This document shows positions 1 to 63,948 of a stretch of DNA of 64,000 nucleotides, one piece after another (position 1 is the stretch's first letter; each line of letters opens with the position of its first letter). A program made the translations under genes and the position numbers. Under the pieces are notes generated by a model. It ran no database searches. It saw nothing but the letters and a program-made list of their open reading frames with translations, and had not been told where the DNA came from. This stretch comes from Mobula birostris (taxonomy: Eukaryota): contig NC_092398.1 in NCBI RefSeq assembly GCF_030028105.1, positions 23,079,649 through 23,143,648 of the forward strand, in the 5' to 3' direction.

Positions 1-466
1 CTGTATCACTGCTGTGTGACTTCTGGCCTGAGCAGAAGGGCTAGTAGGGACCCACTGGGCTGAATTGTCCCCAGATAGCCATTAAAGCCAAAATCCTGCA
101 GACATTCAAGAACCTGAGACAAAACAGGGAAGCTCCGTAGTGTCGGGAAACGCCCAGCAAGTCAATTGGCGTCTCAGGAGATGGAATTATCTACAGACAG
201 ACAGCTCCTCAGGTGCTCCCACCCATGGACCTGCTGCATTGAGATGGTCCCATCACCCCCCACCACCCCACCTCCGACAGTAGTACAGTCCAGGGAAGAA
301 TTACAGACAGCCCTGTGGTCCGTGCCTTGGACAGCTTCCCTCTGGAAACGAAGGCTGGGAAGGTTGGACCCACTCACTGTGCTCTTCATTCCCGGTCTGG
401 ATATAGGAATCCGCCCATTCACCACCACCCCAACACCCCACCAACCAGCACTAGGCCTCGACTCAC

Positions 467-16508
<16,042 letters not shown>

Positions 16509-16890
16509 GGCGACGCCGCCACGTCTCTACGCATGCGCAGCCAGTGATGTTTTCAGACTGATTAGTTTGTTTGAGATACCATCACGCTGATGCTCACATC
16601 CAGGGTGATAAAAGGTCTGGGCTCCCTCCGCTAACTTCTCCCTTAGCCATTTACCTTTTGCACCGATCACCACCCAGTCTATCACACAGTACATACTGTT
16701 CCAATCTTGATAAGGGTCTGAGCCCGAAATGTCCACTGTTCATTTCCCTCCATGAATGCTGCCCGACCTGCTGAGTTCCTCCAGTATTTTGCGTGTATTA
16801 TTCTCGATTAACAGTATCTGCAGATTCTATGGTCCAGCTCTGTCTGGCATTCTTTGCAGAGACAACACTGTGTCTTAGGCACAAATATAC

Positions 16891-17218
16891 AAGTTCTATT
16901 TTAACTTCATCAGTCCACAGCACTTGTTTCCAAAATGCATCAGGCTTGTTGAGATCTTCCTTTGAACCTTTAGAATAGAACTTTTTGGCCGCAATGAGCA
17001 AAGGCATGTTTGGAGAAGAAAGGGTGCAGAATTTCATGAAAAGAACCCCTCTCCAACTGTTAGGCACAGGGATGGATCGATCTTGCTTTGGGCTTGTGTT
17101 GCAGCCAGTGGCACGGGGAACATTTACTGGTAGAGGGAAGAATGAATTCAATTAAATACCAGCAAATTCTGGAAGCAAACATCACACTGTCTGTAAAAAA
17201 GCCGAAGATGAAAAGAGT
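16891..17218. mobile_element. Tc1-like transposase remnant, internally inverted
   Basis: Minus strand FWKQVLWTDEVKIEL; plus strand ELFGRNEQRHVWRRKG...PTVRH...WACVAASGTG...MNSIKYQQILE. Confidence 0.85.
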
Positions 17219-17221
17219 GAA

Positions 17222-17352
17222 CATGAGGAAAGCTGCAGATGCTGGAAATTCAAGCAACCACATCAAAGTTGCTGGTGAACGCAGCAGGCCAGGCAGCATC
17301 TCCAGGAAGCGGTACAGTCGACGTTTCCGGCCGAGACCCTTCGTCAGGACTA
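17222..17352 (-). mobile_element. Penelope-like terminal-repeat fragment with hammerhead motif
   Basis: Reverse complement tagtc-ctgacga-agggtctcggccg-gaaacgtc-gactg followed by the family tail gatgctgcctggcctgctgcgttcaccagc. Confidence 0.75.
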
Positions 17353-17674: not shown

Positions 17675-18890
17675 TAGACCATCAGACACAGCAGCAGAAT
17701 TAGGCCATTTGGCCCATCGAGTCTGCGCCGCCATTCAGTCATGGTTGACATATTTTCCCCTCCTCGGTCGTACTCCCTGTCCTCTGCCTGTAACCTTTGA
17801 TGCCACAGCCAATCAAGAAAATATCAATCCCTGCTTTAAGTACACCCAATGACCTGGCAGCATGTGCTAATAAATTCCACAAACTCACCACCCTCGGGCT
17901 AAAGAAATTTCTCTGCATCTCTATTTTAAATGGACACCCCTCTATCCTGAGGCTGTGCCCTCTTGTCCTAAACTCCCCCACCGTGGGAAACATCCTTTCC
18001 ACATCTGGTCTGTCTAGGCCTTTCAACATTTGAACGATTTCAATGAGATCTCCCCTCATCCTTCTAAATTCCAGCACGTACAGGCCCAGAGCTAACAAAC
18101 ATTCTTCATATGAGAAACCTTTCATTCCCGGAATCATCCTTGTGAACCTCCTCTGAACCCTCTCCAATGCCAGCACATCTTTTCTTTGATGAGGAGCCCA
18201 AAATTGTTCACAATACTCAAGGTGAGGCCTCACCATCACATCCTTGCTGTTAAATTCTAGCACTATTGAAATGAATGTTGACATTGTATTTGCCTTCCTC
18301 ACCACCAACTTTACCTGCAAGTTATCCTTCAGGGTGTTCTGCACAAGGATTCCTGAGTCCCTTTGCATCTCAAATTTTTTGGATTTTCTCCCCATTTAGA
18401 AAATAGTCTGTACATTTATTTCTTCTACTAAACTGACTATGCTTTTACCAACATTGTATATCATTTGCCACTTTCTTGCCCATTCTCTTAATCTGTCTGC
18501 AGCCCACCTGTTTCCTCAACACTATCTCTCTATCTTTGTATGATCTGTAAACTTGGCAAGAGAGCCACCTGTTCCATCCTCTAAATAATTGAAAAACAGC
18601 ATATAAAGGTGCCGTCTCAAAACCGACCCCTATGGAGGACCACTAGTCACTGGCAGCCAACCTGAAAATGATTCTTTTATTCCCACTCACTGCCTCCTAT
18701 CAGTCAGCCAATGCTCTCACCATGCTAGTAACTTTCCTGTGATACCACAGGCTCTTAACTTGGTAAGCAGCCTCATATGTGGCACCTTGTCAAAGGCCTT
18801 CTGAAAGTCCAAATATACAACATCCACTACATTCCCTTTATCCATCCTATTTGTAATCTTCTCAAAGAATTCCAACAGGTTTTTCAGGGA
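17675..18890 (-). mobile_element. CR1-like LINE, degenerate ORF2 (RT to 3' end)
   Basis: [16 protein letters not shown] and VRPHLEYCEQFWAP...[14 protein letters not shown]. Confidence 0.92.
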
Positions 18891-19211
18891 GATTACAAGT
18901 AGGATAATTAAAGGGGATGCAGTGGATGTTGTATATTTCAATTAGCTTTGTATTAATAGTTCAATAGTATTAAGTGTTGTTTGGTAACTGGAAAGACAAT
19001 ATAGAGTACTTTGCGAAAGTCAGCTATATATATGTACAGTATTGTATTATGAACAAAGTTATTTGAATTTATATTTGGAATTCTGTTAGGAATAAAAATT
19101 ATTTTTAAACTATCTTTCTAAGTACACAAAATCATACTAAAATATTTACAAAGGGAGGGAAAGAATTGTCAAGAGTTTTAAGGTCCATTCCAAACCCCGA
19201 ACTCCACAGGT

Positions 19212-19513: not shown

Positions 19514-22500
19514 GTGAGCAGCGGCCGGTGTCCGGGGGGTGGGGGGATCGGGGTGAGACCCAGGGTCCGAGGAGGGGATCCGGGTAGGTGGGGGTGAGAC
19601 CCGGAGTCCGGGAGTGGGAGAGACCTGTGCTGGTGGATTGAGGGGACGAGATAAGATTGGGGTGATCGATTGAGGGGGAGACCCTGGGTGGAGGGTGATG
19701 AACTGGGAATGAGCCAGAGTCCGAGGAGGTGATCGGGGAGGGGGCGAGACCCTGAGTCCCGGGAGGGGGAGTAACCCACAGACCCGGGTGGTGGATTGAG
19801 GATTGATGGGGGGGGGGGCAGACCCAGAGTTTGAGGAGGAGATTGGGGGAATGAGACTCAAGAGTCTCCGGAGGGGTCGGGGTAGAGACCTGGGGTGGTG
19901 AATTGAGGGGATGACAGAATCAGAGAAGATCAGGGTTGGAGGGGCGAGACCCACAATCCCAGGAGAGGGAAGTGTGAGGGGAGGGTTCTGTCCCTTGCAC
20001 ACATTCTCTTCCCCCAGGGCCCCCTTCATCCTAATCCACCCCCCATCCCATACACTCCCTCACACTCAATGCCCTCTCCTATCTCTCAATGCTCCCTCTT
20101 CCTCTCTTCGCACATCCTCTGCCATAACTAACCCTCCACTAAATTTGCTCCTCCCTGAACTTAAACAATGATGCTCCCCAAATCCATAAACAACCCCCCC
20201 CCCCGCACGCCCTCTACAAAAAACACCTCCTCCCCTTTCTCCACGTCCCAGCTGTAATTATCCTTTCTTCCTCCATCTAAACTCTATCCCTCGGCACGTC
20301 CTCCCACCCCAAGGTGCTTCCTTTTCTCTCTCCCTCCCACACCCCACGCTCTGGCCTTTGGGTTTCTGAGGGTGTGTGAGAGAGAGGGAAGGTGCTGTGT
20401 TTATGTGTGGACGTGGGAGGGAACCGGAGCGCCCGGGGGAATCCCACAGGGTCACAAGGAGGGAGAACGTGTGTATGCAGTTTGCACGTTCTCCTTGTGA
20501 CACCTTGTGTGTTTCCCCCATGGGTGCTCCAGCTCCCTCCCACGTCCCTGCGAATGTGTTGGGTTAATTGGCTGCTTCCTGGGGTGTATGAGATAGGGGA
20601 GTGTCAGTGTGGACACGAGGGGGAGTTGATGTACATTTGTAGCAGAGCCTGTTCCGGGGCCATGGGGATTCAAGAGGGATAGAGGTTAGGAGGAAGGACG
20701 AGAGCATTGGGGAGTGTTGGGGCTGAGAACGTTCAGAGATCTGTGGCAGGGTTGGGGAGAGAGTGCAGAAGAGGTGAGAGAGGAGAGGGTATATCTGCAT
20801 GAGGGACAGAGGATTTACGGGAAGGAGGGAGGGACAGACAGGCTCGAGGGAGGGAGGAAATCATTGGGTATAAGGGACGGAGGGTGGGGTGTGGGAGGGA
20901 GAGGAAAATGGGAGAATCTCATGATGGACGGGCGTGCTGATGGATGGAGAAAGGGAGAATGTTTTTTATAGAGAGAGCGCTGAGGGCGGGGGTCTTTTAT
21001 GGACTGGGGAATATTGTTCTATAAGGTCGAGGGGGTATTTAGTGAAGAGAGTGTTGAGGGGTATTAATGGCAGAGGGTGTGCTAAGGGGGTGAGGTATTG
21101 AGGGATAGACAGAGGGTGTATAGGACAGAGGGAATACTGAAGGGGGATTTAGGATGAAGGGGTGCTGGGGGTGTAAGGGAATATGTGTGAGGAACAGAAG
21201 ATGGAGAGAGTGATAAGATGGGGTTTGAGAAAGGAGGATAGAGGTTAGGAGGGAAGACAAGAGAATTGGTGAGGCTGCATCCGCCTAATTTATGTCCATT
21301 CCTCTCTGATTTCCTCTGCTGACCCATGTCCGTCCCTCTGTTACTCCCCCGCAACTAACTGACCTGTGTGCCTTTCCTCTCCCTTCCCCCACTGACCTGT
21401 GTCCGTCCCTCTCCCTTCTTCCCCCACTGACCTGTGTCCGTCCCTCTCCCTTCTTCCCCGATTGAACTGTGTCCGACCTCTCTCCCTTCCCCATTGACTT
21501 GTTTCTGTCTCCCTCTTCTTCCCCATTGATTTGTGTCCGTCTCCCTCTTCCTTCCCCCATTGACTTGTGTCCTTCTCCCCTCACCCTTTCCCCCATTGAC
21601 CCCATTTGTCTGTCTCCTGTCACTTACCCCCGCCAGCTTAAAGCCGCGGGAGAAGCCCCAGGAACTGATTGTGCCCCTCATCCGGAAGAACCGTTGGCAC
21701 AAGCCGGATTCAGGGGCCATGGCGACAGAGGAGAAGGAGGCAGAGGAGCAGGAGGACCCCGAGGTGCTGTCCAAGGCCGTGCAGGAGCTGATTGAAGGTG
21801 CAGAGAGTGGACTGGTGCCTGATTTGGGTGGAGTGTCTGCAGACCCCCTCAGGACTGGCACTGTGGGTGGTGGGTGTGCCAAGGGTCCCGGTGAGGGTAA
21901 GGCTAATTTTTGAGAGTGACCTACCTCCATTCTCCCACTCTGTGTTTGACCCTGGACAGAACGAGAGTCTGTTCCTCCTCAGGACAGATCCTATGCCGGG
22001 CCACAGACAGACAGCTTGCCATATTGGCACTGAACCACAATCAGCAGGCTCCAGTACTCCACCGACTTACCGCCCTTTGGCTATAAACTTCCTCCTCATC
22101 TCTGTTCTAAACCAACATCCTTGTATTCTGAGACTGTGCCCGCTGGTCCCAGACTCTTCCGCTATAGGAAACATCCTCTCCGCGTCCTCTCTATCAAGGC
22201 CTTTCAATATATGTAGTGTCATAAGACGTTGGCAGTCACACTCTTTCCTTGACCGTGATTGCTGTTGGCAAAGTCTTTCTACTGAAGTGGTTTCCTGTTG
22301 ACTTCTGGGCAGTGTCTTTACAAGATGGGTGACCCCAGTCTTCAGAGGCTGTCTGCCTGGTGCCAGCGGTCACATACCCAGGACTTGTGATCTGCACCAC
22401 CTTCTTCCACAGTTTCACGTGACCCTGATCCAGGGGGAGGGGGTGTGGCTGAGCCTTGCCCAAGGGTGACCTGTAGGCTAGCAGAGGGAAGGAGCGCCTT

Positions 22501-25500: not shown

Positions 25501-28500
25501 CAACGTGGAGCTGCGGCCGGAGTCGGTGGGTCAGGGGTCAGAGATGTGTTGGGATGGGGGGAATGCTAACCTTTTTAGCAACCACTGATTTAACCCTAGT
25601 CTGATCACGGGACAACTTACAGTGTTCAATTAACCTACCAAGCAGTGCCTCTTCGGAATGCGGCAGGAAACTGAGCTCCCGGAGGAAAGTTGTGTGGTCT
25701 CGGAGAGAGCGTACAAACCCGTTACAGGCAGCGGTGGGGATTGGTACTGTAAAGCGTTGTGCCAGGGCGAAGCCTGTGGGCAGTAGCGGTGACGAGGGGT
25801 GTGCCCCTACTGCAAGAATGCAGTGTGGAGGGATCTCCCTCACCGCCCGTGTTGACCGCGGAGGGGTAGAGAGAACGCGAGACAGTTCGGAGGAGGGGTC
25901 TGCCCTCTTGGGAGGGGCGGTTAGAAGGGATGTACAGCCCCCCCCCCATCAATTCATGTTGACTAGGAGGGGCAGGGCTGTCCAATGTGTGAGAGGGGCT
26001 CTGAGGTTGGATCTCCTCCACTGTGGGAGGGATGTGAGGCAGGTACTTGGTGCAGTGGGGCAGAACTGTCCAGTGTGTGAAATGATGGGGAGGGGTTGTC
26101 CCGTGGGGAGGGGTGAGGAAGTGGGATGTTTCTCGGTGACTGACCAGCGCTCCCCCCCACCCCCCCGCTCAGTCCACAGCAGAAGACTACGAGTCGGTGC
26201 CTGTGGAAGCCTACGGCATGGCCATGCTGAGAGGCATGGGCTGGAAGGAGGGAGAGGGAATCGGACGCACATTCAAGCAGTGAGTTGGGGTGCTGGGGGG
26301 GCAGGGGGAGGGGCCCGTGCGAGGCGGGATCTGTCAGTGTGGGCGGAGACTGTCAGAGGCGGGATCTGTCAGTATGGGCGGAGTCTGTAAGAGGCGGGAT
26401 CTGTCAGTGTGGGCGGAGCCAGTGAGGTGCAATCTGTCAGTGTGGGCGGAATCTGTAAGAGGCGGGATCTGTCAGTGTGGGCGGAGCCAGTGAGGTGTAA
26501 TCTGTCAGTGTGGGCGGAGTCTGTAAGAGGCGTGATCTGTCGGTGTGGGCGGAGCCAGTGAGGTGTAATCTGTCAGTGTGGGCGGAGTCTGTAAGAGGCG
26601 TGATCTGTCGGTGTGGGCGGAGCCAGTGAGGTGTAATCTGTCAGTGTGGGCGGAGTCTAAGAGGCAGGATCTGTCAGTGTGGGCGGAGCCTTGTAAAAGG
26701 CGGGATCTGTCAGTATGGGCGGAGTTTGTTAGGGGCGGGATCTGTCAGTGTGGGCGGAGCCTGTCAGAGATGGGATCTGTCAGTGTGGGTGGAGCCTGTC
26801 AGAGGTGGGATCTGTCAGTGTGGGCGGAGCCTTGTAAGAGGCGGGATCTGTCAGTGTATTGGGGCCTGTCAGAGGCGGGATCTGTCAGTGTGGGCAGAGT
26901 CTGTGAGGCGGGATCTGTCAGTGTGGGTGGAGTCTGTCAGAGGCGGGAACTGTCAGTGTGGGCAGGGGCAGAACTGTCGATGTAGTTGGAGCTTTATCAG
27001 GTTGAGGGGGGGAGCCAGTGTGGTAATTTCTACCCCTTTCCCTTTCTCTATTTTCAATTCTGCATTACGGGTGGGAGGGGACAGGGTCAGTGATTGGTGG
27101 GAGGCTCGGAGGTCGCAGTCATTGATTGGCGGGTGGATCAGAGGGCGGGGCCAGTGATCAGTGGGTGGGGCAGAGGGCAGGACCGGTGATTGGCGGTTGG
27201 ATCAGAGGTCATGGTCAGTGACTCGCGGTTGGGCCAGAGGGCAGGGTCAGTGACTGATCGGCAGGCGGCGCCTGTGATGATCTCTGTTTCTCTCCCCCCC
27301 CCCCCCACCCCCCGAGGGACGTGAAGCCATTGGAGCAGCAGCTGCGGCCGAAGGGGCTGGGACTGGGGGCGGACCGGTCCGTGGCCCGGGACCTGGAGCC
27401 GAGCCGTCCCACCAGGCCCCCAAAACCGGGCGAGGAGCGGCCGGAGGAGGAGCCGCAGGGCCCAGCTCTGGGCAGGAAGGTTCAGATCCGGCAGGGACCC
27501 CACCGGGATCTGTACGGACAGGTAAAACAGGTCCAAAACCTCCCCTCCAAGAACACCCCCCCCCCTATCTCCCCTCCATCAGCACCCCCACCCCCCACTG
27601 CCCATGGGGCAGAGCTGTAGGGTCAGGTAACCCTCCTGGGACTAACCTTCTGTCTCACACACCTGTGGGACCCTCCCCACCAAGAGCATTATGGAGAGAT
27701 AACACCTTGTCGCCTCCTCTCTCTCCTTCCTTTATAGGCTTCTGCTAGTCTCATGAGACCATGGATTTGTGCCTTGGAAGGTTTCCAGGGTGCGGGCCTG
27801 GGCAAGGTTGTATGGAAGACCGGCAGTTGCCCATGCTGCAAGTCTCCCCTCTCCATGCCACCAATGTTGTCCGAGGGAAGGGCATTAGGACCCATACAGC
27901 TTGGCACTAGTGTCGTCACAGAGCACTGTGTGGTTAAGTGCCTTGCTCAAGGACACAACACGCTGCCTCAGCCAAGGCTCGAACTAGCGACCTTCAGATC
28001 ACCAGACGAATGCCTTAACCACTTGGCCACGTGCCAATGCTCTCTCTCCTACCCCACTAGAAACTGAACAGATAAGTAACCCCGTTTCATTCTCACCCCC
28101 CCCCCCCCACCGGGTGTGAACGAAGGTCCACAAGTGTCAGCATCTCTGACGACCCATCCTGACCCTCGCGTTTCGATACAATTACAAAGAAGGCAAGACA
28201 GCGGCTATATTTCATCAGCAGTTTGAGGGGATGTGGTTTGTCACGGCAGATGTACCGTGGAGAGCATTCTGACTGACTGCCTTCACAGTTCGGTATGGGG
28301 GTGTGGGTGATGGTGTCGGGCTTCAGCAGCTGCAAAAAGTTGTGAACGCAGGCAGCTGCATCGTGGACACTGGCCTCTTCAGCATCCAGGACATCAAGGA
28401 GCACTGCCTCAAAACGGCGGCATCCATTATTACAGACCCCCGTCACACAGGACAGGCCCCTTTCTCACTGTGACCATCCAGAAGGAGGTACAGGAGCTCC

Positions 28501-31500
28501 ATCCCTCCCCCTCCTGTCTTCTCCTATCATTTTGGATCTCCCCCTCCCCCTCCCACTTTCAAATCTCTTACTAACTCTTCCTTCAGTTAGTCCTGACGAA
28601 GGGTCTCGGCCCAAAACGTCGACTGCACCTCTTCCTACAGATGCTGCCTGGCCTGCTGCGTTCACCAGCAACTTTGATGTGTGTTGCTTGAAATTCCAGC
28701 ATCTGCAGATTTCCTCGTGTTTGCGAGGTACAGGAGCCTGAAGGCACACACTCAGTGAATCAGAAACAGCTTCTTCCCCTCCGCCATCAGATTTCTGAAC
28801 GGACATGGAACCCGTGAACACTACCTCGATGTTTTTCCCTCTTTTTTTGTACAACTTAATAATAATTATATATTATTATTATTATTTGGTTTTTATTACT
28901 ATGTATGGCAACGTACTGCTGCCACAACACAACAAGTTTCATGGCATGTGCCGGTGACACTAAACTTGATTTTGATTCTAACTACCCCCGCAGATCGAAG
29001 GGCTGGACCCTGACAACGCCCGCGTGGTGGTACGGCTGGCGCTGGGCAATGAGGTGGTGACCGTCAGTCAGTACGGGCTCAATTACGTCAGCGCCGGAGA
29101 GTACCAGCGTTACAGCCGCGACCTGAGTGAGTTGGGGATGGGGACTGCGCAGGTCAGAGTAGACAGGGTCGCTGCCTGCACTGGGACTGTGCGTGCATAC
29201 AAGCCCCTGGCCTGCATAACACCGAGCTCCCCTCGACAGCACACAGGGGAGCAGAGAGATAGCGTTAGAGAGGGGATGTGGATAGAGGCGCCAGTACGTG
29301 GGGGGGGGGTGGAGGGCGAAGAGAGACACGGGTGAGGACAGGCGCTGGGGAGAGAGCTGTGGATGGAGGGATAGGGAGATGGTTGGGGATGGGGGAGGCC
29401 TCTCTCAGCTCAATGTCTTCTTCCTTCCCACAGGCCGGCTGAGCGCCGCCCACAGGGAAAGCCAACGGCAGCAGGAAGCCGCGCGGGGCAAGGAGGTTGA
29501 GAAGGAGAAACGCACAGAACACCGGGAAAGGAAGAGAAAGCATGAGGCCAGCGCAGAGAGGTGGGTCCGACCCCGCATCTGTGGAGGGAGTACTGGGAGA
29601 CCTCAGTAAACGAGGGTAGGACACACACCGTGAATGGTGGGGAGTATCAAGGGATAGAGGGATCTTTCTGTACAATGATCAGACACACTTTGTGAATAGT
29701 GGGGAGTGTCAAGGGATAGAACGACCTCGGTGTACAAGGGTAGGACACACACTGTGAATGGTAGGGAGTGTCGAGGGACAGAGGGACCTCGGTGTACAAT
29801 GGCAGGACACACTTTGTGTCAAGGGATAGAACGACCTCACACAAATTGTGTATGGTGGGGGGGTGTTGAGGGACAGCGGGACCTCGGTGTATGAGGGTAG
29901 GACTCACACCATTACTGATGTTGTCGCAGGAGTGAGGGAGGGGAAGTATGACGGGGAGGAGGATGTACTGTGGGAGGGGTTGTGCTCTGCCCCACAGGGA
30001 GGGGAGGTGGGAGCAGTGAGGAAGGGGGTAGTACCCAGGCAGCTAACGGTCACCGCTCTGCCCCCACAGGGACAGGAAACGGGACAAGCGGCCGAGCAGT
30101 CCCACTCCCCGCCGCCCGTGTTGGCTGCGCAGTGACCTGCTGGTCCGGCTCATCGACCGGCGCTACCAGAAGGGCGCCTACTATAACTGCAAGGTAACCC
30201 TGGCCTGGGTCACGGGGCTGGAGGTCGGAGGGCAAGGGGCAGTGACGATGCGGGGAGGGGGAGGCTGCCGGTGAGAGGAGGGAGGGGGATAAGGTGGGGG
30301 GAGGTGAAGGAGAGGGAAGTTCAGGGACGGTGTGAGGTATGTGGGGATGGGAAGGCAGGAGGGTGAAGGGGAGGATGGAGGTCAGTGGGAAGGGGTAAGG
30401 GCAGGGCTGGGGGAAGATGGAGGTCTGTGGGACGGAGGGAAGGGCAGGGGTTGGGAGGTGAGGGGGAAGATCAGGGTAGCTGGTGACAAGTGGACATCAG
30501 CTGGTGACGGGAGAGGAAGAGAGGAGGTGGGAAGAAGGGTCGGGGTTGTGGGGGAGGGAGGGAAGGTGGGACAGTGGGGGAGAACATTCAGAGATTTGGG
30601 GTGTAAAGGTGAAGGGAAGGGGTGAGTGTGGGGAAGGAGGGGAGAGGGAAAGGAGAAGAGGACAGTGGAAGCGTATGAGCCTCCTTCCACATTGATTCTG
30701 ATTTTTTCTCTCTCTCCGCCCCACCTCTAGGTCACCATCGAGGACGTGCTGAGCACTGACTCGTGTGTGTGTCGGACCGACGGTGGACGACTTCTGGAAG
30801 GTGGGAATCCCGGGACCGCGGGTGGGTGGGGAGGGTGGTGGCGGAGCACTGAGGGAGCGGCAAGGAAGGGCAAACGACCTGAGGCTGCAGAGCTCGGGCC
30901 GGTGCGACGGTGAAGTCCAGAGCAAGTGGCTGGCTGGCAAGAAGGCATACAGTACACTTGCCTTCAAAGCCAGCTTGCCCACAGTTTTATTTATTGAGAT
31001 ACAGCGTGGGACAGGCCCTTGGAGACTCCCCAACAGCAACGCACCGATTTTAACTACAGGCAATTTGCAACGACCAATTAACCCACCAACCAGTTCGTCT
31101 TTGGACTGTGGGACGGAAACCCACACATTCCACGCGGAGGACGTACAGGCTCCTTACAGATTGAACTCTGACACATCGAGCTGTAATGGGAGTCGCACTA
31201 TCCACTACGCTACCGTGGCGCCCAAGACTGAGGGAGCTGGTCAGCGGCACTTATTTTGGCTGGAAGTCCCTGAGCAGTGATTACCGCTGTCTAAAACTCT
31301 GCTTAGGCCTTTTGTGTTCAGTTCTGATCGCCCTGTTATGGGAAGAAGATACAGGGGGGCTTTGGAGAGGGGGCAGAAGAGGTTCTCCGGGATGCTGCCT
31401 GGGTTACAGCGATGAGCTTACAAAGTGAGGTTGGAAAAACTTGGGTTGTTTTCCTCCAAAGCAGCGAGGGCTGAGAAGTTGATTAAGATTGTAAGAGGGT

Positions 31501-49600: not shown

Positions 49601-52600
49601 TGGTGAGGTAGAGACATGACTGTCCTAGCACGCGAAGTCAGCTCCAGCAGACTGGCAGATGAGCTCTACAGTGATATCCAATGGCCAGGAAGGCTGGGAA
49701 CGCTCCGTGGACAGCAAAGGGCATTTCAAAGCACAGGAGACATCATGGTCATCCACTGCAACCAGGGAAGACCCCAGTTTGTGACATTTGTTCATACCTC
49801 TAGACCCCGACCCGAGGCCAAGAGAGTGGATTACCCCAGAGCAACAGCTATTCCACTTTAAAAACTCTCCCGCTCAGATTTCCTGTCATCGTCAGACATG
49901 ACAGACAACCACCACAATTAAAAACCTAATTAAACTCATTCTTTCTCCTACACAGGGTCTATATCTTTCCATTCTCTGCACACTCAGGGGAAGAGCCATG
50001 AAATAATGTTGCAGCTCTGTCAAACCCTGGTTAGACCACACGGAGTATTGCGTTCAGCTCTGGTCGCCTCATTATGGGAAGGATGTGGGAGCTTTAGAGA
50101 AGGTGCAGGGGGGATTTACCAGGATGCTGCCTGGATTGGAGAGCCCGTATTCTGAGGATAGGTTGAGCGAGCTGAGCCTTTTCCCTCTGGAGCGAAGGAG
50201 GATGAGAGGTGACTTTGTGTACAAGATGATAAGAGGAGAGAAAGCTTCCTATAGTGAGGGAGTATAGGGCCAGAGGGCACAGCCTCAGAATAGAAGGACG
50301 TCCCTTTAGATCAGAGATGAGGAGGAATCTCCTTATAACTAGTAAATTAAACATCTAACTAATCTATTTCTTTCTGCCTACACAATGTCTACCTTGATAC
50401 ATCTATGTGTCTGTCCGGTGGTCGTCCATGGTCCAACGTTGACAGGAAACCTGTGTGGAGAGTTTTCAAAGTGGCAAAACCATTGCACTGGGCAGTTTCA
50501 CTCTCGAACTCAGAAGTCTGAGTCCAATAGTCCAAACAAGTGTCACAAACTAGGGTCTTCTTTGGTTACAGCAGATGACCAGGCCGTCTATTGCGCTCTC
50601 CAAGGAGCATTGCAGTATCGCCTTCCTAGCCATTGGAGATCACTGTAGATCTCATCGGCCCAGTCCGCAGGCATGTCCCTAGAAAGGGGCTGCTGGCTAC
50701 CCGAAGCGGTACAACGGGGTGCGGCCGCAATCACATGCAGACAGCCACTTGGATCCCCAGGTGAGAGCTGAGCGTCTGCTGGGGACCAAAGGTGAGGGAG
50801 CTGCCCTGGAATGGACACAAGCCCCTTCACCAGAGGTGCAACCCCTACTAGGACACCCCATGTACCCTTAACAGTCTTAAACATCTCCATCCCATCTGCC
50901 TCCACCACCACTCCTGGCAGTGCATTCCAGGCACCCACCACATAAAAGCACTTGTCCCACACATCTCCTTTGAACCTGTGCCCACTTATATTAAATGCCC
51001 TCTGACATTAGACAGTTTGACCTTGGGAAACAGACACTGGCTCTCTACTGTATCTATGCCTCCACTAATCTTATAGCCTCACTGTTCCACAAAATAAAAA
51101 TGGGTCTATTAATAAGATTATAGAGGACACAGTGATGGGTGGATTAGCAAGTTCCCGATGACTGCACAATCGGTGGAGCCGTGGAGAGCATAAAGAGCTT
51201 TAGAAAACATATACACATCAGTGACACGAGAGATTCTGCAGACGCTGGAAATCCACAGCAACATACGCAAAGTGCTGGAGGAACCTGCAGCATCTCTAGA
51301 GGGGAATAAACAGTCAACATCTCGAGCCGAGACTCTTCATCAGGGACATTGATCAGTTGCAGATATGGGCAGAGAAATGGGAGATTGGAGTTTAACTGGG
51401 CAATGTTCAAAGTAAATTTATTATCGACGTACATATTTTGACATTCTGAGATTCATTTTTTTTACAGGCATACTCCGTAAGTCCGTGACAGAATCAATGA
51501 AAGACTGCACCAACAAAGACTGACAAGTGAGCAATGTGCAAAAGTTGACAAACTGTGCAAATACAAAAAAAAGACCAATAAATAACTAATACTGAGAATC
51601 TGAGTTCTGGAGTCCTTGAAAGAGTGTCTATAGAGGTTGTGGGAACATTTCAATAATTGGGCAAGTGAAGTTAACCCCTTCGGTTCAAGAGCCTGATGGT
51701 TGAGGGGTAATAACTGTTGGGGTGTATTCTGGAGTTATGGTTTATAACAAATACCAATCTTAATAGCAGCCAGTCTCCAGACCTTAACATGGATTGTAGA
51801 TTGAATTTAAACCGCAACTCAGAACAAAGCTGCATTTTGGGGAAACATTCCACTTAACCTGAGATGTCTGCATTTGCATGAATGCAACCCAGAGTCAGTG
51901 GGAATTAACATTCATTCTGGGTATCTGGAGTGTGGGTGTGAAGATGGATATGGCTGAAAATTATATGTAATTCAAAGGAAGCATTGTAGATACGTTGTAA
52001 CTATCAAATTGTCCTACCGCTATCTTTGATCTTTAACAGATGAAAATGTCGTGTAACATTTCAGATGAGCAGGCCCCTTCTTCCAAGAGTGTCTCAATAT
52101 GATGCCTGGTGCTCATTTCGCTGAATAAACTTCTATATCCACTAGCTTCAGTGTCTCGCTGGTGACTTCGTTCACACTTACAACAATAATTATTCCTGAA
52201 CCTGGACGTGTGAGTCCTGAGGCTCCTGTACCTCCTTCCTGGTAGCAGCAACGAGAAGGTGAGAGTGTGAGATGTTGTATTTTGGGATGCAAAGCACAAG
52301 GGAAAAGCATCAGTCAACAGTAGGAGTCGTTACAGCACTGAGGAACAGAGGGACGTTGGGGTCCAGGTCCACAGCTCCAAGTAAATCGAGTAGGAGAGGG
52401 TAAATGTTACAGTAATCTTCACTGGTCAGAGCAATGGGTATAACAGTAAGGATATCACGTTGCAGCTGTATACAGCTTTGGTAGACCACACTTAAAGAAT
52501 TGCGTACAGTTATGCCTGCCCTGTTACGAGAAGGATGTGGAGGCTTTTGAGAGGATGCAGAAGAGGTTCACCAGGATGCCGCGTGGATTAGAGAGTGTGA

Positions 52601-55215
52601 CCTATAAGGAGAGGTTGGACAAACTTGAGTTGGCGGAGTATGTGGATGAGGTTGTAAATGAGGATCTCGTGTCAGCGCGAGGACATGGAGGATAGTGAGA
52701 TCAGTGGAGGATGCTAGTATGCCAGAGCATCATGAAATAGAGGAGATAAGTGTCCATTCGTTACTGTCATTCAACTGTACACGTCTACAGCCAAATGAAA
52801 CAACGTTCCTCCAGACCAAGGTGCACAACACAGTACATGTAACTCACACACAACACATAAAGTAATACTTATTTTGTTATGTTCGGTGTTGTACGATGTG
52901 GGCAATCATGATCTATCCATGATTGTTCTTGGCAAATTTTTCGACAGAAGTGGTTTGCCATTGCCTTCTTCTGGGCAGCATCTTTACAAGGCGGGTGACC
53001 CCAGCCATTGTCAATACTCTTCAGAGATAGTCTGCCTGGCATCAATGGTCACATGACCAGGACTTGAGATGTGCACCGGCTGCTCATACAACTGTCCCCC
53101 ATGGCTTCACATGATCGGGGGCTAAGCAGGTGCTACGCCTTGCCCAGGGCTAGCGGAGGGAAGGAGTGTCTTACACCTCCACTCAGAAGTAAGAGTAGGT
53201 TCTCTTAAAGAATTCAGGGAATATTTGATTCTGCGCTTTGCGCTCCCTGGAGTACAAATCGATAGTAAATAGTAAAAATTTAAATTACAAATCATAAATA
53301 GAAAATAGAAAAGGGAAAGCAAGGTAGTGCAAAAAACCAAGAGGCAGGCCCAGATATCTGGAGGGTATGGCCCAGATCCGGGTCAGGATCCATTCAGCAG
53401 TCTTATCACTGTTGAAAAGAAGCTGTTCCCAAATCTGGCCGTACAAGTCTTCAAGCTCCTGAGCTTTCTCCTGGAGGGAAGAGGGACGAAAGGTGTGTTG
53501 GCTGGGTGGGTCGTGTCCTTGATTATCCTGGCAGCACTGCTCCGACAGTGTGCGGTATAAAGTGAGTCCAAGGACGGAAGATTGGTTTGTGTGAGGTACT
53601 GCCCCGTGTTCACGATCTTCTGCAGCTTCTTTTGGTCTTGGACAGGACAACTTCCATACCAGGTTGTGATGCACCCTAGAAGAATGCTTTCTACGGTGCA
53701 TATATAAAAGTTAGTGAGGGTTTTACAGGACAGGCCAAATTTCTTTAGCTTTCTCAGGAAGTAAAGGCGCTGGTGGGCCTTCTTGGCAGTGAACTCTGCT
53801 TGGTTGGACCAAGTCAGGTCATTTGTGATATTGACCCCGAGGAACTTAAAGCTTTTGACCTGTTCCACTTGCGCACCACCAATGTAAATGGGGTCGTGCA
53901 GTCCGCTACTCCTTCTGAAGTCAACAACCAATTCCTTCGTCTTGCTGACGTTGAGGGATAGGTTATTGTCTTCGCACCATGCCACCAAGTTCTTAATTTC
54001 CTCTCTGTACTCAAACTCATCATTACCCGAGGTACGGCCGACAATTGTGGTGTCATCAGCAAACTTATACACTGAGTTCGATAGATATATATAGCTCTTG
54101 TAATTGATTTACTTATTTATTCCTTTCTTTCTATATTACAATGTATTGCATTGTACTACTGGTGCTAAGTTAACAAACTTCATGACACATGCTGATATTA
54201 AACCCAATTCTGATTCAAATGGCTGTTACACAGACACGAGTGCAGTGAATGGAGGGAGATGGGTCACGATAACAGCGGGGTAGAAGCTATCCTCGAGCCT
54301 GGTGGGACATGATTTCACACTTTTCTTTCTCCTGCCCCATGGGAGAGGGGAGAAATAGGAGCAGGAGTAGGCCATCTGGCCTGTTGAGCCTGCTCTGCCA
54401 TTCAATCAGATCATGGCTGACCTGACCATGGACTCATCTCCACCTATCCGCCTTTTCACCATAACCCTTAATTCCCCTACTATGCAAAGACCTACCCGAC
54501 CTTGTCTTAAAAATATTTACTGAGGTAGCCTCCACTGCTTCATTGGGCAGATAATTCCACAGATTCACCAGTCTTTGGGAAAAACTTCATCAACCATGGG
54601 TTAGATAACGGTGACCATTAGGGCACGATAACAGCTGGGTAGAAGCTATCCTCGAGCACTCAGGGCACCCCTTGCCCTCCTGCCCAAAGCACCCAGATGT
54701 GGAACCATCTTGTTTTGGGCTCCCTCTCAGTCTAGAGGGGAAACATTCACCATTTCCCTCCCCATAGATGCTGCCCGACCGATTTAACCATGTCACCTGA
54801 GAACAACTCGCGCTATCACTATTATTTAGAATTTGTCTCCTTTTTTGCACATTGGCTCTTTCTCAGTTTATGTTTTTTTTACATAAATTCTATTTATTTT
54901 CCGGTAGATGTTCGCATTTGCTGACCGGTATGTACTTTGATAATAAAGTAATCGGCTTTCCGGATCACGTGACACAATCGCCGACCCGGAGAGCAGGTGG
55001 GCCACGTGACTTAGCTCCCCGCGAGGGGCTCACGTGACGATATTCCGCGCTATCCGCTGTCTACGCAGGCGCAATGCGTTCCGCCCGGACAACGCAAGCC
55101 CGCTAACCCCCGTAACCTTGCCACCGCTGCCGATGGGTCTCCCCGGGGTCGTCCCCCCCATCCGCACTGCCCGCCGCCCGGCACCGTACCATGGTTCGCG
55201 GGCGTACTCCTCCAT
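37559..55215 (-). CDS. TIMM17B: Mitochondrial import inner membrane translocase subunit Tim17-B, complete, 169 aa
   Basis: complement(join(55190-55215,47390-47489,45471-45534,44699-44827,38111-38221,37559-37638)) = 510 nt. [29 protein letters not shown]...; the C-terminal [11 protein letters not shown] tail and head-to-head position with PQBP1 indicate the B paralogue. Confidence 0.97.
38111..38221 (-). CDS. TIMM17B: TIMM17B coding exon 5
   Basis: [36 protein letters not shown], 111 nt. Confidence 0.96.
38996..39477 (+). mobile_element. CR1-like 3' end nested in the Rex1 element
   Basis: [19 protein letters not shown]; 7-bp TSD aagagtc (38989-38995 and 39478-39484). Confidence 0.88.
39869..40379. 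mobile_element. PIF/Harbinger-like MITE nested in the Rex1 element
   Basis: About 37-bp TIRs aggctgatttatacttgtgcgtcaactc / gagttgacgcagaagcataaatcagcct; flanks tta / tca. Confidence 0.85.
42676..43915 (-). mobile_element. L1-type LINE 3' end interrupted by an insertion at 42821-43710
   Basis: Minus strand ...[20 protein letters not shown], followed by a T-rich 3' UTR ending aataaaaa. Confidence 0.65.
42821..43710 (+). pseudogene. Probable processed retrocopy of an unidentified polyadenylated transcript
   Basis: AATAAA at 43672-43677, poly(A) at 43702-43710, and flanking direct repeat aaaaag(t/g)gagggg (42808-42820 and 43706-43718). Confidence 0.6.
44699..44827 (-). CDS. TIMM17B: TIMM17B coding exon 4
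   Basis: [42 protein letters not shown], 129 nt. Confidence 0.96.
45471..45534 (-). CDS. TIMM17B: TIMM17B coding exon 3
   Basis: [21 protein letters not shown], 64 nt. Confidence 0.96.
47390..47489 (-). CDS. TIMM17B: TIMM17B coding exon 2
   Basis: [33 protein letters not shown], 100 nt. Confidence 0.96.
49060..49335 (+). mobile_element. tRNA-derived SINE (related copies at about 25560-25770 -, 30985-31225 - and 31610-31810 +)
   Basis: tagcggttagc...gagttca head; core ggtttcctccgggtgctccagtttcctcccacagt. Confidence 0.8.
49383..49915 (+). mobile_element. RTE-like non-autonomous element with HDV-like fold at its 5' end; diverged inverted copy at about 50400-50862
   Basis: The two copies align from catggggtgtcc to ...ccacttt(a/g)aaaactctcc...tttcctgtca. 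Confidence 0.7.
53190..54080 (-). mobile_element. Young Rex1/Babar-type LINE 3' end with open RT C-terminal frame
   Basis: Uninterrupted 229-aa frame [11 protein letters not shown]...[15 protein letters not shown]...FKFLGV...[12 protein letters not shown]. Confidence 0.92.
55190..55215 (-). CDS. TIMM17B: TIMM17B coding exon 1
   Basis: aacATG GAG GAG TAC GCC CGC GAA CCA TG|gtacgg, 26 nt. Confidence 0.95.
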
Positions 55216-55857: not shown

Positions 55858-55996
55858 CAACACGAGAAAATCTGCAGGTGCTGGAAGTTCAAACAACTAT
55901 CCTGACGAAGGGTCTCGGCCCGAAACGTCGACTGTATTTCTTTCTATAGATGCTGCCTGGCCTGCTGCGTTTCACTAGCATTTTGTGTGTGTGTTA
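55858..55996 (+). mobile_element. Penelope-like terminal-repeat fragment (inverted tail plus hammerhead unit)
   Basis: cacgagaaaatctgcaggtgctgga (inverted family tail), then ctgacgaagggtctcggcccgaaacgtcgactg...gatgctgcctggcctgctgcg. Confidence 0.75.
55897..55934 (+). ncRNA. Minimal type I hammerhead ribozyme motif
   Basis: CUGACGA at 55902-55908, stem II GGGU-CUCG-GCCC, GAAAC at 55922-55926, GUC cleavage triplet at 55927-55929. Confidence 0.7.
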
Positions 55997-61200: not shown

Positions 61201-63948
61201 CATCCGTCCCCCCCTCAACATTCACCCCGACCACTCTCCCACCAACTCCACAGAGCCCGACGAGGAGATTATCGCTGAAGACTACGACGATGATCACATC
61301 GATTACGAAGCCACGCGGCTGGAGAATCTGCCCCCCAACTGGTACAAGGTCTTCGAGCCCAGCAGGTGAGGCTCACTGGGTGTTGACGTCTCCCCTCTAT
61401 CTCACTCTCCCTCTCTCCCACCCCTCCTGTGTCTGTCTCTCCCCACCTTCCTGGCAAAGCCTCTCCATCCCAATCCCTCTCCTTTCCCCGACTATCCCCC
61501 TCCACTTTCCCCGACTCTGCCTTCCGTCACACCCACTTTCTCTCTCACTTTCCCGCCCTCCTCACTGTTGTGTGTTCACTCTCAAATACCTTTGGAGATG
61601 ACGCAGCAAGAATGTGCAGCGGGTAGGGACGCTGTCTCCCAGCTCTTGAAACGCAGGCTCGATGCCGACTTCCACCACTCTATCTGTCCCTCTGTGTGTC
61701 CGTGTGTGCGCGTGTGTGGTGCCTGTGACCTGTGGGTTTCCTCCCTTCACTCCCGTGCCCAATCGGACATGCGGGGTCAGGAGCTTGTGGTTTGTGTGAG
61801 AGATGGCGTGACGGTGATGGGCGACGGGGAACGATTGGTCTGAGTACTGAGACTGTAATGGAAACTATTGAAGAGAACTACAGGACGTAAGACAGATCTG
61901 TCACCAGGGTGAGGTGGTTCTCACCGAAAGAGATTAGTGGGATTCAGGGGAGCTTTGTAAAGCATCAGTCAGACTGCAACACACACAAAATGCTGGAGGA
62001 ACTCAGCAGGCTAGGCAGCATCTAGGAAAACAATACAGTCGACATTTCGGGCCAGAACCCTTTGGCAGGACTACACTTTGGAGTACTGTGAGCAGTATTG
62101 GGCCCCTTATCTAAGAAAGGATGTGCTGGCAATAGAGAGGGTCCAGAGAAGGTTCATGAGAATGATCCCGGGAATGAAAGGGTTCACGTATGAGGAGCGT
62201 TGACAGCTCTGGGCCTGTGCTCACTGGAGTTCAGAAGAGTGAATTCATTGAAACCTATCGGATATTGAAAGCACGCAATAGAGTTGACAAGGAGGGTATG
62301 TTTCCTGTAGTGAGGGAGTCTAGGACCATAGGGCACAGCCTCAGAATAGAAAGATGTCCATTTAGAACAGAAACGAGGAAGAATTTCTTTAGTCAGAGGC
62401 TGGTGAGTCTGGAATTCATTGCCACAGGCAGCTGTGGAGGCCAAGTCATTGGGTGTATTTAAATCAAAGCTTGATAGGTTCCTAATTAGTCAGAGTGTTA
62501 AAGGTTACGAGTATGGGGTTGAGAGGGATAATAAATCAGCCATGATGGAATGGCAGAGCAGGCTCGATGGGCCAAATGGCCTAATTCTGCCCCTGTACCT
62601 GTAATTGGGTGCTTGTGGATGCTTTCAGAATGACACTCCTCCTATTAAGCTCCTTCTGCCCACCCTGAACTATCCCCGTTGGTGGGGGAGGTGGGAGTTG
62701 GGACCAGGAAAGCCGCAGGGGAGGGGATTGGCTGCCCAGGTTGAGGGGTAACTCGGTTCAGTCCACCTGCAAGGAAGTACAATTGAGTAGGAACAACTTT
62801 AGTGGGCGGTAGGGTGGAGGCCGCGGAGGGAAGGAGGAGGAGGACAAGTGAGAGTATCCGGGAGGGGAGAGGGCGAGTGTGGAGAGTTGGCATCGGGAGG
62901 AGGCGAGAGTTGGGGGGGGAACGGGGAGGGACAAATGGATGAAGTGTTGGGAGAGGAGGAAGAGACAACGAGGAGGGAGCAGAGGGACATGCAGATGGAG
63001 GGTCATGGGGGGGGTGGAAGGCCAGGAAGGGGGGAGAAAACTAGAATGTCGGGCAAGTGGAAACTAGAGGGTCAGGAAGGGGGAAGAAGAGACTGCAGGG
63101 TCGGGGGGGTTACTGTGGAAGGTCAGGGAAGGGAAGGGGAAATGAGGATCAGGGAGGGGGGAGAAGAGACTGCAGAGTCGGGGGGGTTACTGTGGAAGAT
63201 CAGGGAAGGGAAGCGGAAACAAGGATCAGGGAGGGGAAGTCTGTGGAGGGTCAGGGAGGGCAGAGAGGGAGAGTGGAGGGTCAGGGAGGGCGGGGGGTAG
63301 ACTAGAGGGCAGGGAGGGGGGAAGAGGAGACTGGAGGATCAGGGAGGGGTGGAGACTGGAGGGTCGGGGGTTACTCTGGAAGGTCAGGGGAGGGGAAGGG
63401 AAAACAAGGATCAGGGAGGGGGCAGAGACTGGAGGTTCAGTGGGGCGGGGCAAGGAGACCGGACGGTCGGGGGGAACTGGAAGGAGTGGGGAGGGGACGC
63501 CAGAGGTTCAAGGAGGAGGGAGGACACTGGAATGTCGGGGGGGGGAGGGAAGACAGTGGAGGGTTAGGGAGGGTGGAGGGGGGAGACGGGGGGGTCAGGG
63601 AGGGTAGAGGGGTAGACTGTGGAGGATCAGGGAAGGGGGAGGAACTGTGGAAGGTCAGGGAGGGGGGAGGAAACTGGAATATCAGGGAAGGAGAAAGGGG
63701 AGACTTTGGAGGGTCAGGGAAGGGGAAGGGCAAACGATCAGGAAGGGGGAGACTGGAGGGTCGGTGGGGGGGAGAGACTGTACAGGGTCAGCGGGGATTG
63801 GGAGATGGGCAAAACGACAGCCAGTAACTCTGACCCCTTGCCCCCAGCGGCCTGCCCTACTACTGGAACATCGAGACTGACCTGGTGTCCTGGCTGCCTC
63901 CCACTGACGCGGCTGCCGTCATCACCAAGTCCGCCAAGAAACTGAAAG
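58168..63948 (+). CDS. PQBP1: Polyglutamine-binding protein 1, 5' part including the WW domain; continues beyond the window
   Basis: join(58168-58234,61254-61365,63848-63948). [78 protein letters not shown]... Confidence 0.97.
58276..58386. repeat. Near-perfect inverted repeat: 53-bp arms, 5-nt loop
   Basis: 58276-58328 is the reverse complement of 58334-58386 with one mismatch. Confidence 0.97.
59028..60620 (-). mobile_element. CR1-like LINE, degenerate ORF2
   Basis: [36 protein letters not shown] and conserved 3' tail. Confidence 0.9.
61254..61365 (+). CDS. PQBP1: PQBP1 second coding exon
   Basis: [10 protein letters not shown]...LPPNWYKVF; 112 nt. Confidence 0.95.
62074..62600 (+). mobile_element. 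CR1-like LINE 3' end
   Basis: [16 protein letters not shown]...GHSLRIE and tail ctcgatgggccaaatggcctaattctgc. Confidence 0.88.
63060..63765. repeat. Purine-rich degenerate minisatellite (gactggagggtcagggaagggg)
   Basis: Recurrent unit throughout the PQBP1 intron. Confidence 0.8.
63848..63948 (+). CDS. PQBP1: PQBP1 third coding exon
   Basis: [33 protein letters not shown]; donor aag|gtgatt. Confidence 0.93.

Follow-up and report, generated by a model that had tools for sequence, protein, structure and literature searches.

What kind of mobile element left the hammerhead-bearing unit that lies at 28498-28724 in a stretch of the Mobula birostris genome? The window analyzed here comprises 64,000 nucleotides of contig NC_092398.1 (forward strand), and all positions are counted from its first letter. 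Our preferred reading, to which we assign a probability of roughly 0.8, is that this 227-bp unit is a dead, 5'-truncated end module (a pseudo-LTR, or pLTR, with a minimal hammerhead plus a tail) of a very abundant Penelope-like (PLE) retrotransposon of a ray. The insertion itself is likely to be largely ordinary, as the hammerhead motif has already been published for such elements. The locus is composed of the following features.

28136..28497, plus strand: left part of a Rex1/Babar-like reverse transcriptase (RT) C-terminal fragment, the insertion target (tblastn, Pfam)
28485..28497, plus strand: left copy of the target site duplication (TSD), 13 bp
28498..28724, plus strand: insertion, likely the 5'-truncated 3' module (pLTR part and tail) of a Penelope-like element
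28725..28737, plus strand: right copy of the TSD, 13 bp
28725..28803, plus strand: right part of the same RT fragment, in register again (tblastn)
28994..29125, plus strand: downstream host exon of GPKOW (G-patch and KOW; E 2e-9 to 7dvq_y)

An earlier note on this DNA had claimed that the unit interrupts a Rex1 fragment, that it inserted by itself, and that it is flanked by a 13-bp TSD. These claims were borne out. The flanks represent a single RT C-terminus that has been split: with the RVT_1/ALKBH8_N-bearing frame 53386-54108 (minus strand) as query, tblastn matched 28136-28464 (amino acids 92-207) and 28696-28803 (amino acids 202-240), the first part of the second match overlapping the insert. 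We take the fragment around the insert to be Rex1-like. The TSD is an exact 13-mer whose score was equalled in 0.25% of 2000 random window pairs, and the 13-mer is single and unduplicated in a second Rex1-like piece (52234-52222, minus strand). Its last two bases in the left copy also match the upstream continuation of the family, which amounts to 2-nt microhomology. The insert is in sense orientation within a GPKOW intron; additional G-patch/KOW matches at 27258-27617 are weak.

The insert itself can be divided into four segments.

28498..28587, plus strand: pyrimidine-rich stretch upstream of the hammerhead (from sequence)
28589..28624, plus strand: minimal type I hammerhead (architecture as in PMC4209133)
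28625..28687, plus strand: stretch between the hammerhead and the inner 3' end (copy-end alignment)
28688..28724, plus strand: optional tail of ~35 bp to the outer 3' end; five pieces stop at 28720-28724

The hammerhead comprises helix I (AGUC/GACU), the CUGACGA box, a bulged A and helix II (GGGU/GCCC). A loop-less palindromic ACGU substitutes for helix III, the cut is predicted to fall after 28620, and G12 is replaced by an A at 28613 through a CpG transition. Cervera and de la Pena (2014, PMC4209133) described minimal hammerheads from the pLTRs of metazoan PLEs; the genomes of fish, coelacanth and frog contain thousands of them each. In the portions of that paper covered here, these motifs resemble the ray family in being of type I with a short helix I, a bulged base before helix II, a palindromic 15.2-16.2 and no helix III, and in occurring mostly as single dispersed motifs, which were ascribed to truncated PLEs. 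We also count as a likeness that the intron of D. virilis Penelope ends at the 5' end of helix I according to the same portions, whereas the schistosome motifs given there have a helix II of 7-8 bp compared to 4 bp in the ray family. Cartilaginous fish are not named in these portions and in parts of the supplement. The covered part of the PMC8557442 supplement contains no mention of shark, skate or the motif, and the covered part of the PMC11167929 supplement yielded no matches. The ray family adds to the published pattern of dispersed minimal hammerheads from truncated Penelope-like elements.

Further copies in the window were located with an nhmmer profile, which was built from the six previously listed motifs and hence recovers those six by construction (best match in the reversed-window control: E 0.57).

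1250..1372, both strands: head-to-head inverted copy, 1250-1304 minus and 1313-1372 plus (nhmmer E 2e-9)
16702..16831, plus strand: old copy; G5, A6 and G8 lost, 5' end ambiguous
17221..17352, minus strand: young copy, 92.5% to the unit; 11 core bases kept, closing pair of helix II broken
51224..51347, minus strand: old copy, beginning at the hammerhead edge; A14 to G, two-sided helix II change
54730..54780, plus strand: weak remnant (nhmmer E 0.004)
55860..55992, both strands: head-to-head inverted copy, tail arm 55860-55897 minus and hammerhead arm 55900-55992 plus
61976..62073, minus strand: tail-less copy of ~98 bp; A6 and G8 lost

The unit had been credited with at least six relatives, but the list consisted of five relatives and the unit itself; six are reached once the copy at 1250-1372 is added. 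This copy lacks the hammerhead core, carries the tail on a single arm and is flanked by a 13-bp TSD with one mismatch (1241-1253 / 1373-1385). The copy at 17221-17352 spans the region from the hammerhead edge to the end of the tail, and that at 55860-55992 has an intact core and helix II, with the 5' strand of helix I cut at the junction. The repeat upstream of the copy at 51224-51347 is presumably CR1-like. The tail-less copy at 61976-62073 sits inside a CR1-like repeat, which resumes on the far side, and its 3-4 base overlap is TSD and microhomology at once. The remnant at 54730-54780 possibly represents an older subfamily. Clear TSDs were found for two of eight pieces, in addition to the 3-4 base one of the 62073 copy, and the TSD search gave nothing above chance for six of the eight.

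All six hammerhead motifs are present at their listed positions with the listed base changes, and helix I AGUC/GACU, said to be kept in several copies, is complete in three of them. None of the six is a complete hammerhead, and two retain all 11 core bases. That most copies have lost catalytic bases is therefore true of the window, where at least one core base is gone from 4/6 copies, but not of the family majority, in which G12 is kept. This base accounts for 90, 73, 78 and 91% of the depth in the four runs X1, X2, X7 and X14 of public contigs (contig depth does not equal copy number), and it is implied by 14 of 15 antisense and both sense Mobula peptides that cross the site. The family consensus bears the CUGANGA/GAAA core: the majority sequence of alignment A1 contains both boxes, a UH cleavage site, and helices I and II. 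The core losses in the window copies are CpG-biased decay (14/22 substitutions on 10/33 CpG columns, p = 0.0013). C11.1 has often been changed to U at 28612 (35-67% of depth); this weakens the usually conserved G10.1-C11.1 pair and is a point against the preferred reading. Across the six window copies 83% of the helix cells are paired, compared to 19-44% when the helices are slid. The replacement of GGG/CCC by GAG/CUC in the 51311 motif, previously read as compensatory, is real as a change, but the compensatory signal is not significant (the only two-sided change among 9 pairs; 73/500 shuffles as high). Folding z-scores were not significant for any of the six motifs or for the 138-nt module, and dimer co-folds produced long intermolecular duplexes with no active hammerhead-dimer topology. 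An Rfam scan of the window with E values up to 5 returned 14 matches, none to a hammerhead family and none at gathering score; the minimal motif is not caught by the Rfam hammerhead models. The ribozyme may work, as a dimer or assisted by protein, only in source elements.

The length of 227 bp, which had been taken to define a discrete element, is unique to the copy at 28498-28724. It is the length of one 5'-truncated copy and not that of a fixed-length non-autonomous element, because one shared sequence continues 5' of it in public contigs. Loose contig ends before 28496 agree with each other in X2 (380 contigs, agreement 0.82), and the same consensus recurs in X7 (294 contigs, 0.76) and X14 (9 contigs, 0.91), whereas the loose ends behind 28725 in X1 are unrelated (30 contigs, 0.43). 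The continuation is visible for only ~30 bases, and hence the parent, too, could be a non-autonomous derivative of greater length. Elsewhere in the window the profile search found no clear counterpart of 28498-28587; by lenient alignment the 16705 copy reaches 28505 (138/195), but this match is of low complexity and ambiguous.

At the other side of the element, the copies end at two places. Apart from the pieces that reach the outer 3' end, three stop at the inner one at ~28687: the 62073 copy and the 1250 inverted arm at 28687-28688, and the 55900 copy (hammerhead arm) around 28684-28696. The end of the 16705 copy is ambiguous (at 28711), and the remnant at 54730-54780 is uninformative in this respect. 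The search for an internal repeat between the two ends gave a 9-base match at best. Among the seven well-supported copies, two consist of head-to-head inverted arms, only one of which bears the tail. Both features have been described for PLEs. In the covered portions of the literature on the insertion units of EN+ PLEs (Craig et al. 2021, PMC8557442; Arkhipova et al. 2013, PMC3846280), an optional tail of 30-40 bp is a hallmark, and inverted copies with a one-arm tail are reported in the latter study. 5' truncation, variable or missing TSDs, microhomology at the 5' junction and solo pLTRs are further points shared with the ray family. In the anole Poseidon element PAc (Frangieh et al. 2024, PMC11167929) the tail maps to two RT start sites, and PAc likewise has two ends defining a tail and a hammerhead that lies ~110-125 nt before the outer 3' end (111-118 nt from helix II in the anole element, 124 nt in the ray family). 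The two differ in that PAc starts in an AC-rich stem-loop, while both ends of the ray family are GU-rich on the hammerhead strand. The PAc ORF begins in helix II, whereas the ray motif has no ATG, and the target in the ray is not AT-rich, unlike that of PAc (PMC11167929).

The family thus displays a PLE insertion signature (a minimal type I hammerhead, two 3' ends, inversions with a one-arm tail, variable TSDs and microhomology junctions) together with the features of truncated PLEs, namely a pLTR hammerhead, the optional 30-40 bp tail, a shared 3' end with 5' truncation and an adjacent inverted copy. The proposal of a retroelement that is of the Penelope pLTR kind, carries a hammerhead and is present in very high copy number is supported as a reading, PLE membership being inferred, as no GIY-YIG/RT partner was found. 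None turned up in a six-frame motif scan of the window, in Pfam scans of 11 and 9 selected frames or proteins, or among 3, 4 and 15 protein matches; a decayed piece of a PLE ORF could have escaped these scans. The sense-peptide searches gave 3 and 4 matches, none with a PLE domain, and two of these (P0004 and P0005) were dropped as low-complexity. DNA pattern scans returned 0 and 0 matches in viral sequences, 0 and 0 in prokaryote genomes, and 0 and 1 in metagenomes; the sole metagenome match (L001) is chance-like and has no upstream hammerhead.

In the likely mechanism, the GIY-YIG endonuclease of a full-length element would nick the target, and RT would start on the element RNA at either of two sites ~35 nt apart, downstream of the hammerhead. 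Copying would run 5'-ward across the uncleaved hammerhead and stop early, and the cDNA end would be joined via a few bases of microhomology. Head-to-head copies with a one-arm tail would arise if the two start sites were used from opposite target strands. The enzyme and the priming steps are the presumptive parts of this scheme. An uncleaved RNA template is shared with PAc, for which cleavage was unnecessary in vitro (PMC11167929), and the window copies hold the cleavage site uncut.

Two other explanations were weighed. Self-cleavage by the hammerhead could determine where the copied RNA begins and hence how long the insert is, and the 1250 inverted arm does begin near the cut (alignment from 28615; profile position 45). 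However, 6/7 well-supported copies extend across the cleavage site, the start cluster lies ~30 nt upstream of it, and none of the anole reads stopped at that site (PMC11167929), which makes cleavage-set ends very improbable. We consider it equally improbable that the unit is the monomer of a non-LTR retrozyme, in which tandem hammerhead repeats cut themselves into monomers that are circularized and reinserted. Retrozymes (Cervera and de la Pena 2020, PMC7229834; Li et al. 2026, 10.64898/2026.07.22.740005) share with the ray family, in the portions covered, a type I hammerhead, the lack of an ORF, pLTR ancestry and presence in a cartilaginous fish. Their TSDs exceed 4 bp (PMC7229834), and vertebrate retrozymes derive from PLE pLTRs, leave monomers and occur in the sole chondrichthyan sampled according to the covered part of 10.64898/2026.07.22.740005. 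The ray family may already be among the chondrichthyan retrozyme families of that study. Yet retrozymes are defined by tandem repeats that give rise to monomers and circles, and the 62 TRF rows of the window include no tandem array of the unit. Moreover, the DNA copies end away from the cleavage site (28620/28621), a monomer of fixed length was not seen, and the hammerhead belongs to the minimal PLE type, whereas coral retrozyme repeats bear canonical type I motifs (PMC7229834).

The preferred reading of 5'-truncated PLE copies leaves one pattern aside, as random truncation does not explain the start cluster at 28588-28593, within which at least four of the six hammerhead copies in the window begin. 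The covered portions of PMC8557442 and PMC3846280 do not describe such a concentration of 5' ends at the hammerhead edge. These starts fall behind a splice-acceptor-like signal and away from the cleavage site: 28569-28587 reads as a TACTAAC motif, a polypyrimidine tract and CAG, resembling a 3' splice site. A splicing function would be a prediction from these letters, and the branch-like A at 28574 is variable (A>G in ~39-46% of the depth in family contigs). In the public contigs, X1 contains 16 contigs with unrelated loose ends before 28590, and joints to the opposite strand occur at 28589-28590 in three runs.

The same edge could mark an independent short non-autonomous element of ~100-137 bp, reaching from the hammerhead edge to the inner or outer end, which would have its own transcript and use PLE proteins in trans in a SINE-like manner; the 227-bp copy would then be a longer variant or come from the parent. 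The X1 ends and joints are compatible with such an element, as are the copies 17352, 51347, 55900 and 62073, which begin at 28588-28593 (two of them with verified unrelated upstream repeats), the matching ends at 28588 in 2/15 antisense peptides, and the sufficiency of pLTR sequences for movement in trans in a rotifer (covered part of PMC3846280). Conversely, the short copies fall into several age classes (78-93% to the unit) and not into one young family, and 13/15 peptides, which were selected for a splice donor there, extend upstream together with hundreds of contigs. A short copy would also lack an upstream transcription start unless its promoter were internal, and ARAGORN detected no tRNA genes in the window, although decayed heads would be missed. 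On balance, we regard a short independent element as unlikely.

Within the PLE reading, a tentative and rather doubtful explanation for the cluster is that the template RNA of the Penelope family begins at a fixed point, the upstream hammerhead edge, which lies at the splice-acceptor-like AG and not at the ribozyme cut. Copying primed internally, 100 or 137 nt further downstream, would run off this end and yield large numbers of a discrete class of short, 'strong-stop' inserts. If so, such inserts would reveal the position of a PLE RNA end across the genome, the ribozyme would be shown to remain uncut on the transposing RNA, and antisense strong-stop inserts would provide rays with an Alu-like in-frame cassette exon. 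A 5'-end peak at the upstream hammerhead edge and not at the cut site, if real, bears on the role of PLE hammerheads and on which RNA is copied, and the abundance of the family permits statistics on PLE ends.

In 14 Mobula genes, antisense copies of the family appear in the annotation as in-frame exons. Their recurrence across the gene models points either to genuine Alu-like exonization or to an artefact of annotation, which would itself be useful to know of.

The unit, an insertion at 28498-28724 (+), is bounded on both sides by an exact 13-bp direct repeat, in agreement with the target-site duplication (TSD) proposed in the earlier note; the score of this repeat was reached by 0.25% of 2000 random window pairs. 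The same 13-mer is present once in another Rex1-like piece, 52234-52222 (−), and sequence comparison within the window showed that the flanks of the unit are two in-register parts of a single reverse transcriptase (RT) C-terminus. Therefore, the unit inserted by itself, as had been suggested. Rex1 is a name that we presume for the interrupted RT, with a domain basis (RVT_1 and ALKBH8_N) on a related frame only, the best preserved of many Rex1-like window pieces:

53386-54108 (−), open RT C-terminal frame of 241 aa with RVT_1 and ALKBH8_N.

The unit sits on the sense strand within an intron of a GPKOW gene; the G-patch and KOW matches upstream of it are weak.

The description of the unit as a discrete 227-bp element did not hold. 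Region 28250-29000 was compared with contigs of four of the 24 listed public runs (X1 and X2 from one sample, possibly the source of the window, X7 and X14 from other organisms), which placed 6379, 129199, 146397 and 6092 contigs, respectively, matches to the flanks included. Among the best 24 of 1894 rows, loose ends before 28496 followed one consensus (X2, 380 contigs, agreement 0.82; X7, 294 contigs, 0.76; X14, 9 contigs, 0.91), and those behind 28725 were unrelated (X1, 30 contigs, 0.43). The 3' end of the family is therefore fixed, its sequence continues upstream, and 227 bp is one truncation rather than the length of a fixed-length element. At its 5' junction, the unit shares 2 bases of microhomology with the TSD end. 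All 18 named protein matches to the unit's reading frames were from Mobula, which makes a ray the likely source of the window.

The positions and base changes reported earlier for six hammerhead motifs were confirmed. A profile built from these motifs added two pieces, one an inverted copy (1250-1372) and the other a weak remnant (54730-54780; best E in the reversed window, 0.57), and revealed no clear counterpart of 28498-28587 in any other window copy. An inner 3' end at ~28687 is shared by the 62073 copy (61976-62073), the 1250 inverted arm and the hammerhead arm of the 55900 copy (55860-55992), and an outer end at 28720-28724 by the unit, the 17352 (17221-17352) and 51347 (51224-51347) copies and the tail arms of both inverted copies. 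The 16705 copy has an ambiguous end (28711 on the unit). In both inverted copies (1250 and 55900), the tail (28688-28724) is on a single arm only. Between hammerhead copies 16705 and 17315 lies another fragment, which we assign by likeness:

16850-17219 (+), presumed Tc1/mariner-like transposase fragment.

The unit's hammerhead, which the Rfam scan of the window did not catch, has the minimal type I form: helix II is 4 bp long and preceded by a bulged A, and the palindrome ACGU takes the place of helix III. All 11 core bases are kept in two of the six window copies, and none of the six has a complete hammerhead (core and both helices). G12 is lost in the unit itself, and X1, X2, X7 and X14 retain it in 90, 73, 78 and 91% of depth, respectively (40 of 64 variant rows listed; depth is no copy number). 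Hence the claim that most copies have lost catalytic bases stands for the window, but not for the family majority with respect to G12. Substitutions were CpG-biased (14 of the 22 lay in 10 of the 33 columns, p = 0.0013), as expected for neutral loss after insertion. The compensatory pair change claimed for helix II is present on both sides, but it is the sole such change and was matched by 73 of 500 shuffles. Among the same listed variants, position 11.1 (28612) showed C-to-T, i.e. U, in 35–67% of contig depth. This is far more than at other CpG sites and exceeds the loss of its partner G12, and it points to a major subfamily whose closing pair is G-U. This frequency and the folding z-scores, which were not significant for any of the six hammerhead motifs or for a 138-nt module, count against a strict ribozyme reading.

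Antisense copies form a near-identical in-frame stretch of 35–55 residues in 15 annotated proteins of Mobula, encoded by 14 unrelated genes:

28722-28564 (−), antisense protein matches P0006-P0020, most ending at the same place.

Sense copies occur in three more proteins (P0001-P0003). Judged from annotated proteins, the antisense stretch looks like a putative Alu-type exonization (cassette exon) or an annotation artefact. With a TCN serine codon assumed, 14 of the 15 proteins and 13 of the 14 genes have a residue over G12 that points to an intact base, and both sense Mobula peptides crossing the site (2 of 2) imply the same, all among matches selected for likeness to the query.

No GIY-YIG or RT partner of the Penelope-like element (PLE) kind, one that the earlier note had recommended seeking, was tied to the family in the window motif scan, the selected Pfam-scanned frames or the protein matches. 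Therefore, the case for PLE membership is built on the RNA motif and on how the copies are inserted, from which we infer that the family is probably a ray member of the PLE truncated-copy hammerhead pattern. Six DNA pattern scans gave one match, which was chance-like. Minimal hammerheads in PLE pseudo-LTRs (pLTRs) are mostly single motifs ascribed to truncated copies, and the type I form, bulged A and palindrome for helix III agree with these published motifs (PMC4209133; PMC6155905). PLEs are described as having an optional tail of 30–40 bp, truncation at the 5' end and an inverted copy next to them, and the two 3' end positions and inverted copies observed here resemble the tail and the adjacent inverted copy (PMC8557442; PMC8969392). 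For rotifer PLEs, one account (PMC3846280) gives TSDs of 8–10 bp or none, 5' junctions that microhomology can form, and a tail on one of the inverted pLTRs, like the single-arm tails found here; self-priming on an antisense template, offered in the same source, could be another route to head-to-head copies. In an anole element (PMC11167929), the tail is the stretch between two RT start sites, with initiation 111–118 nt past helix II; in vitro, cleavage by the hammerhead was not required. The outer end here lies 124 nt past helix II compared with those 111–118 nt, the ends on the hammerhead strand are GU-rich rather than AC-rich, and the target, unlike that of the anole element, is not AT-rich.

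Tandem copies, sought for the retrozyme-like reading, were absent: the window held no tandem array of the unit, and the retrozyme definition, as given in PMC7229834 and a preprint (10.64898/2026.07.22.740005), therefore does not apply here. The preprint reports retrozymes in the only chondrichthyan sampled. The observation is real and mostly ordinary, and the family probably represents, in a ray, a pattern known in print since 2014. Among the papers listed by the literature search, with Repbase, Dfam and the preprint's tables outside its scope, none described this family and none joined Mobula and Penelope.

Part of the wider value lies in a cluster of 5' ends at the hammerhead edge, which was not described in the literature searched. 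The 17352, 51347, 55900 and 62073 copies start at 28588-28593, in the helix I 5' strand and ~30 nt upstream of the hammerhead cut site. The upstream flanks of the 51347 and 62073 copies are another window repeat, and the flanking repeat resumes on the far side of the 62073 copy. Among the best 24 of 1894 rows, X1 had 16 contigs whose loose ends before 28590 were unrelated, and three runs showed opposite-strand joints at 28589-28590. TACTAAC, a polypyrimidine stretch and CAG (28569-28593 region) form a 3'-splice-site-like signal directly before the cluster. The pLTR intron of Penelope in D. virilis has its end at helix I (PMC4209133). The entry point of protein P0002 into the element fits the splice-like acceptor, and the branch-like A varies within the family (40 of 64 variant rows listed). 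The cluster could stem from a defined RNA 5' end, from RT stalling or from a favoured microhomology, and its size could be inflated by older subfamilies whose upstream part has diverged.

Further features of the window, the first two assigned by likeness, are:

177-9605 (−), exon-like frames resembling the PDZ and guanylate-kinase parts of what we take to be a MAGI-type scaffold gene.
10578-12057 (+), long open frames of 343 and 200 aa, presumably a Tx1/L1-type ORF2 C-terminal part.
18811-18940, 20409-20547 and 58276-58386, three long hairpins with sub-threshold Rfam miRNA matches.

Pfam gave no match on the three frames tried from 177-9605 (−). The frames at 10578-12057 are inserted in a 52-bp minisatellite (9737-10573, 12159-12497), to which an array at 4855-5135 is related. 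The three hairpins are likely fold-back pieces of other repeats.
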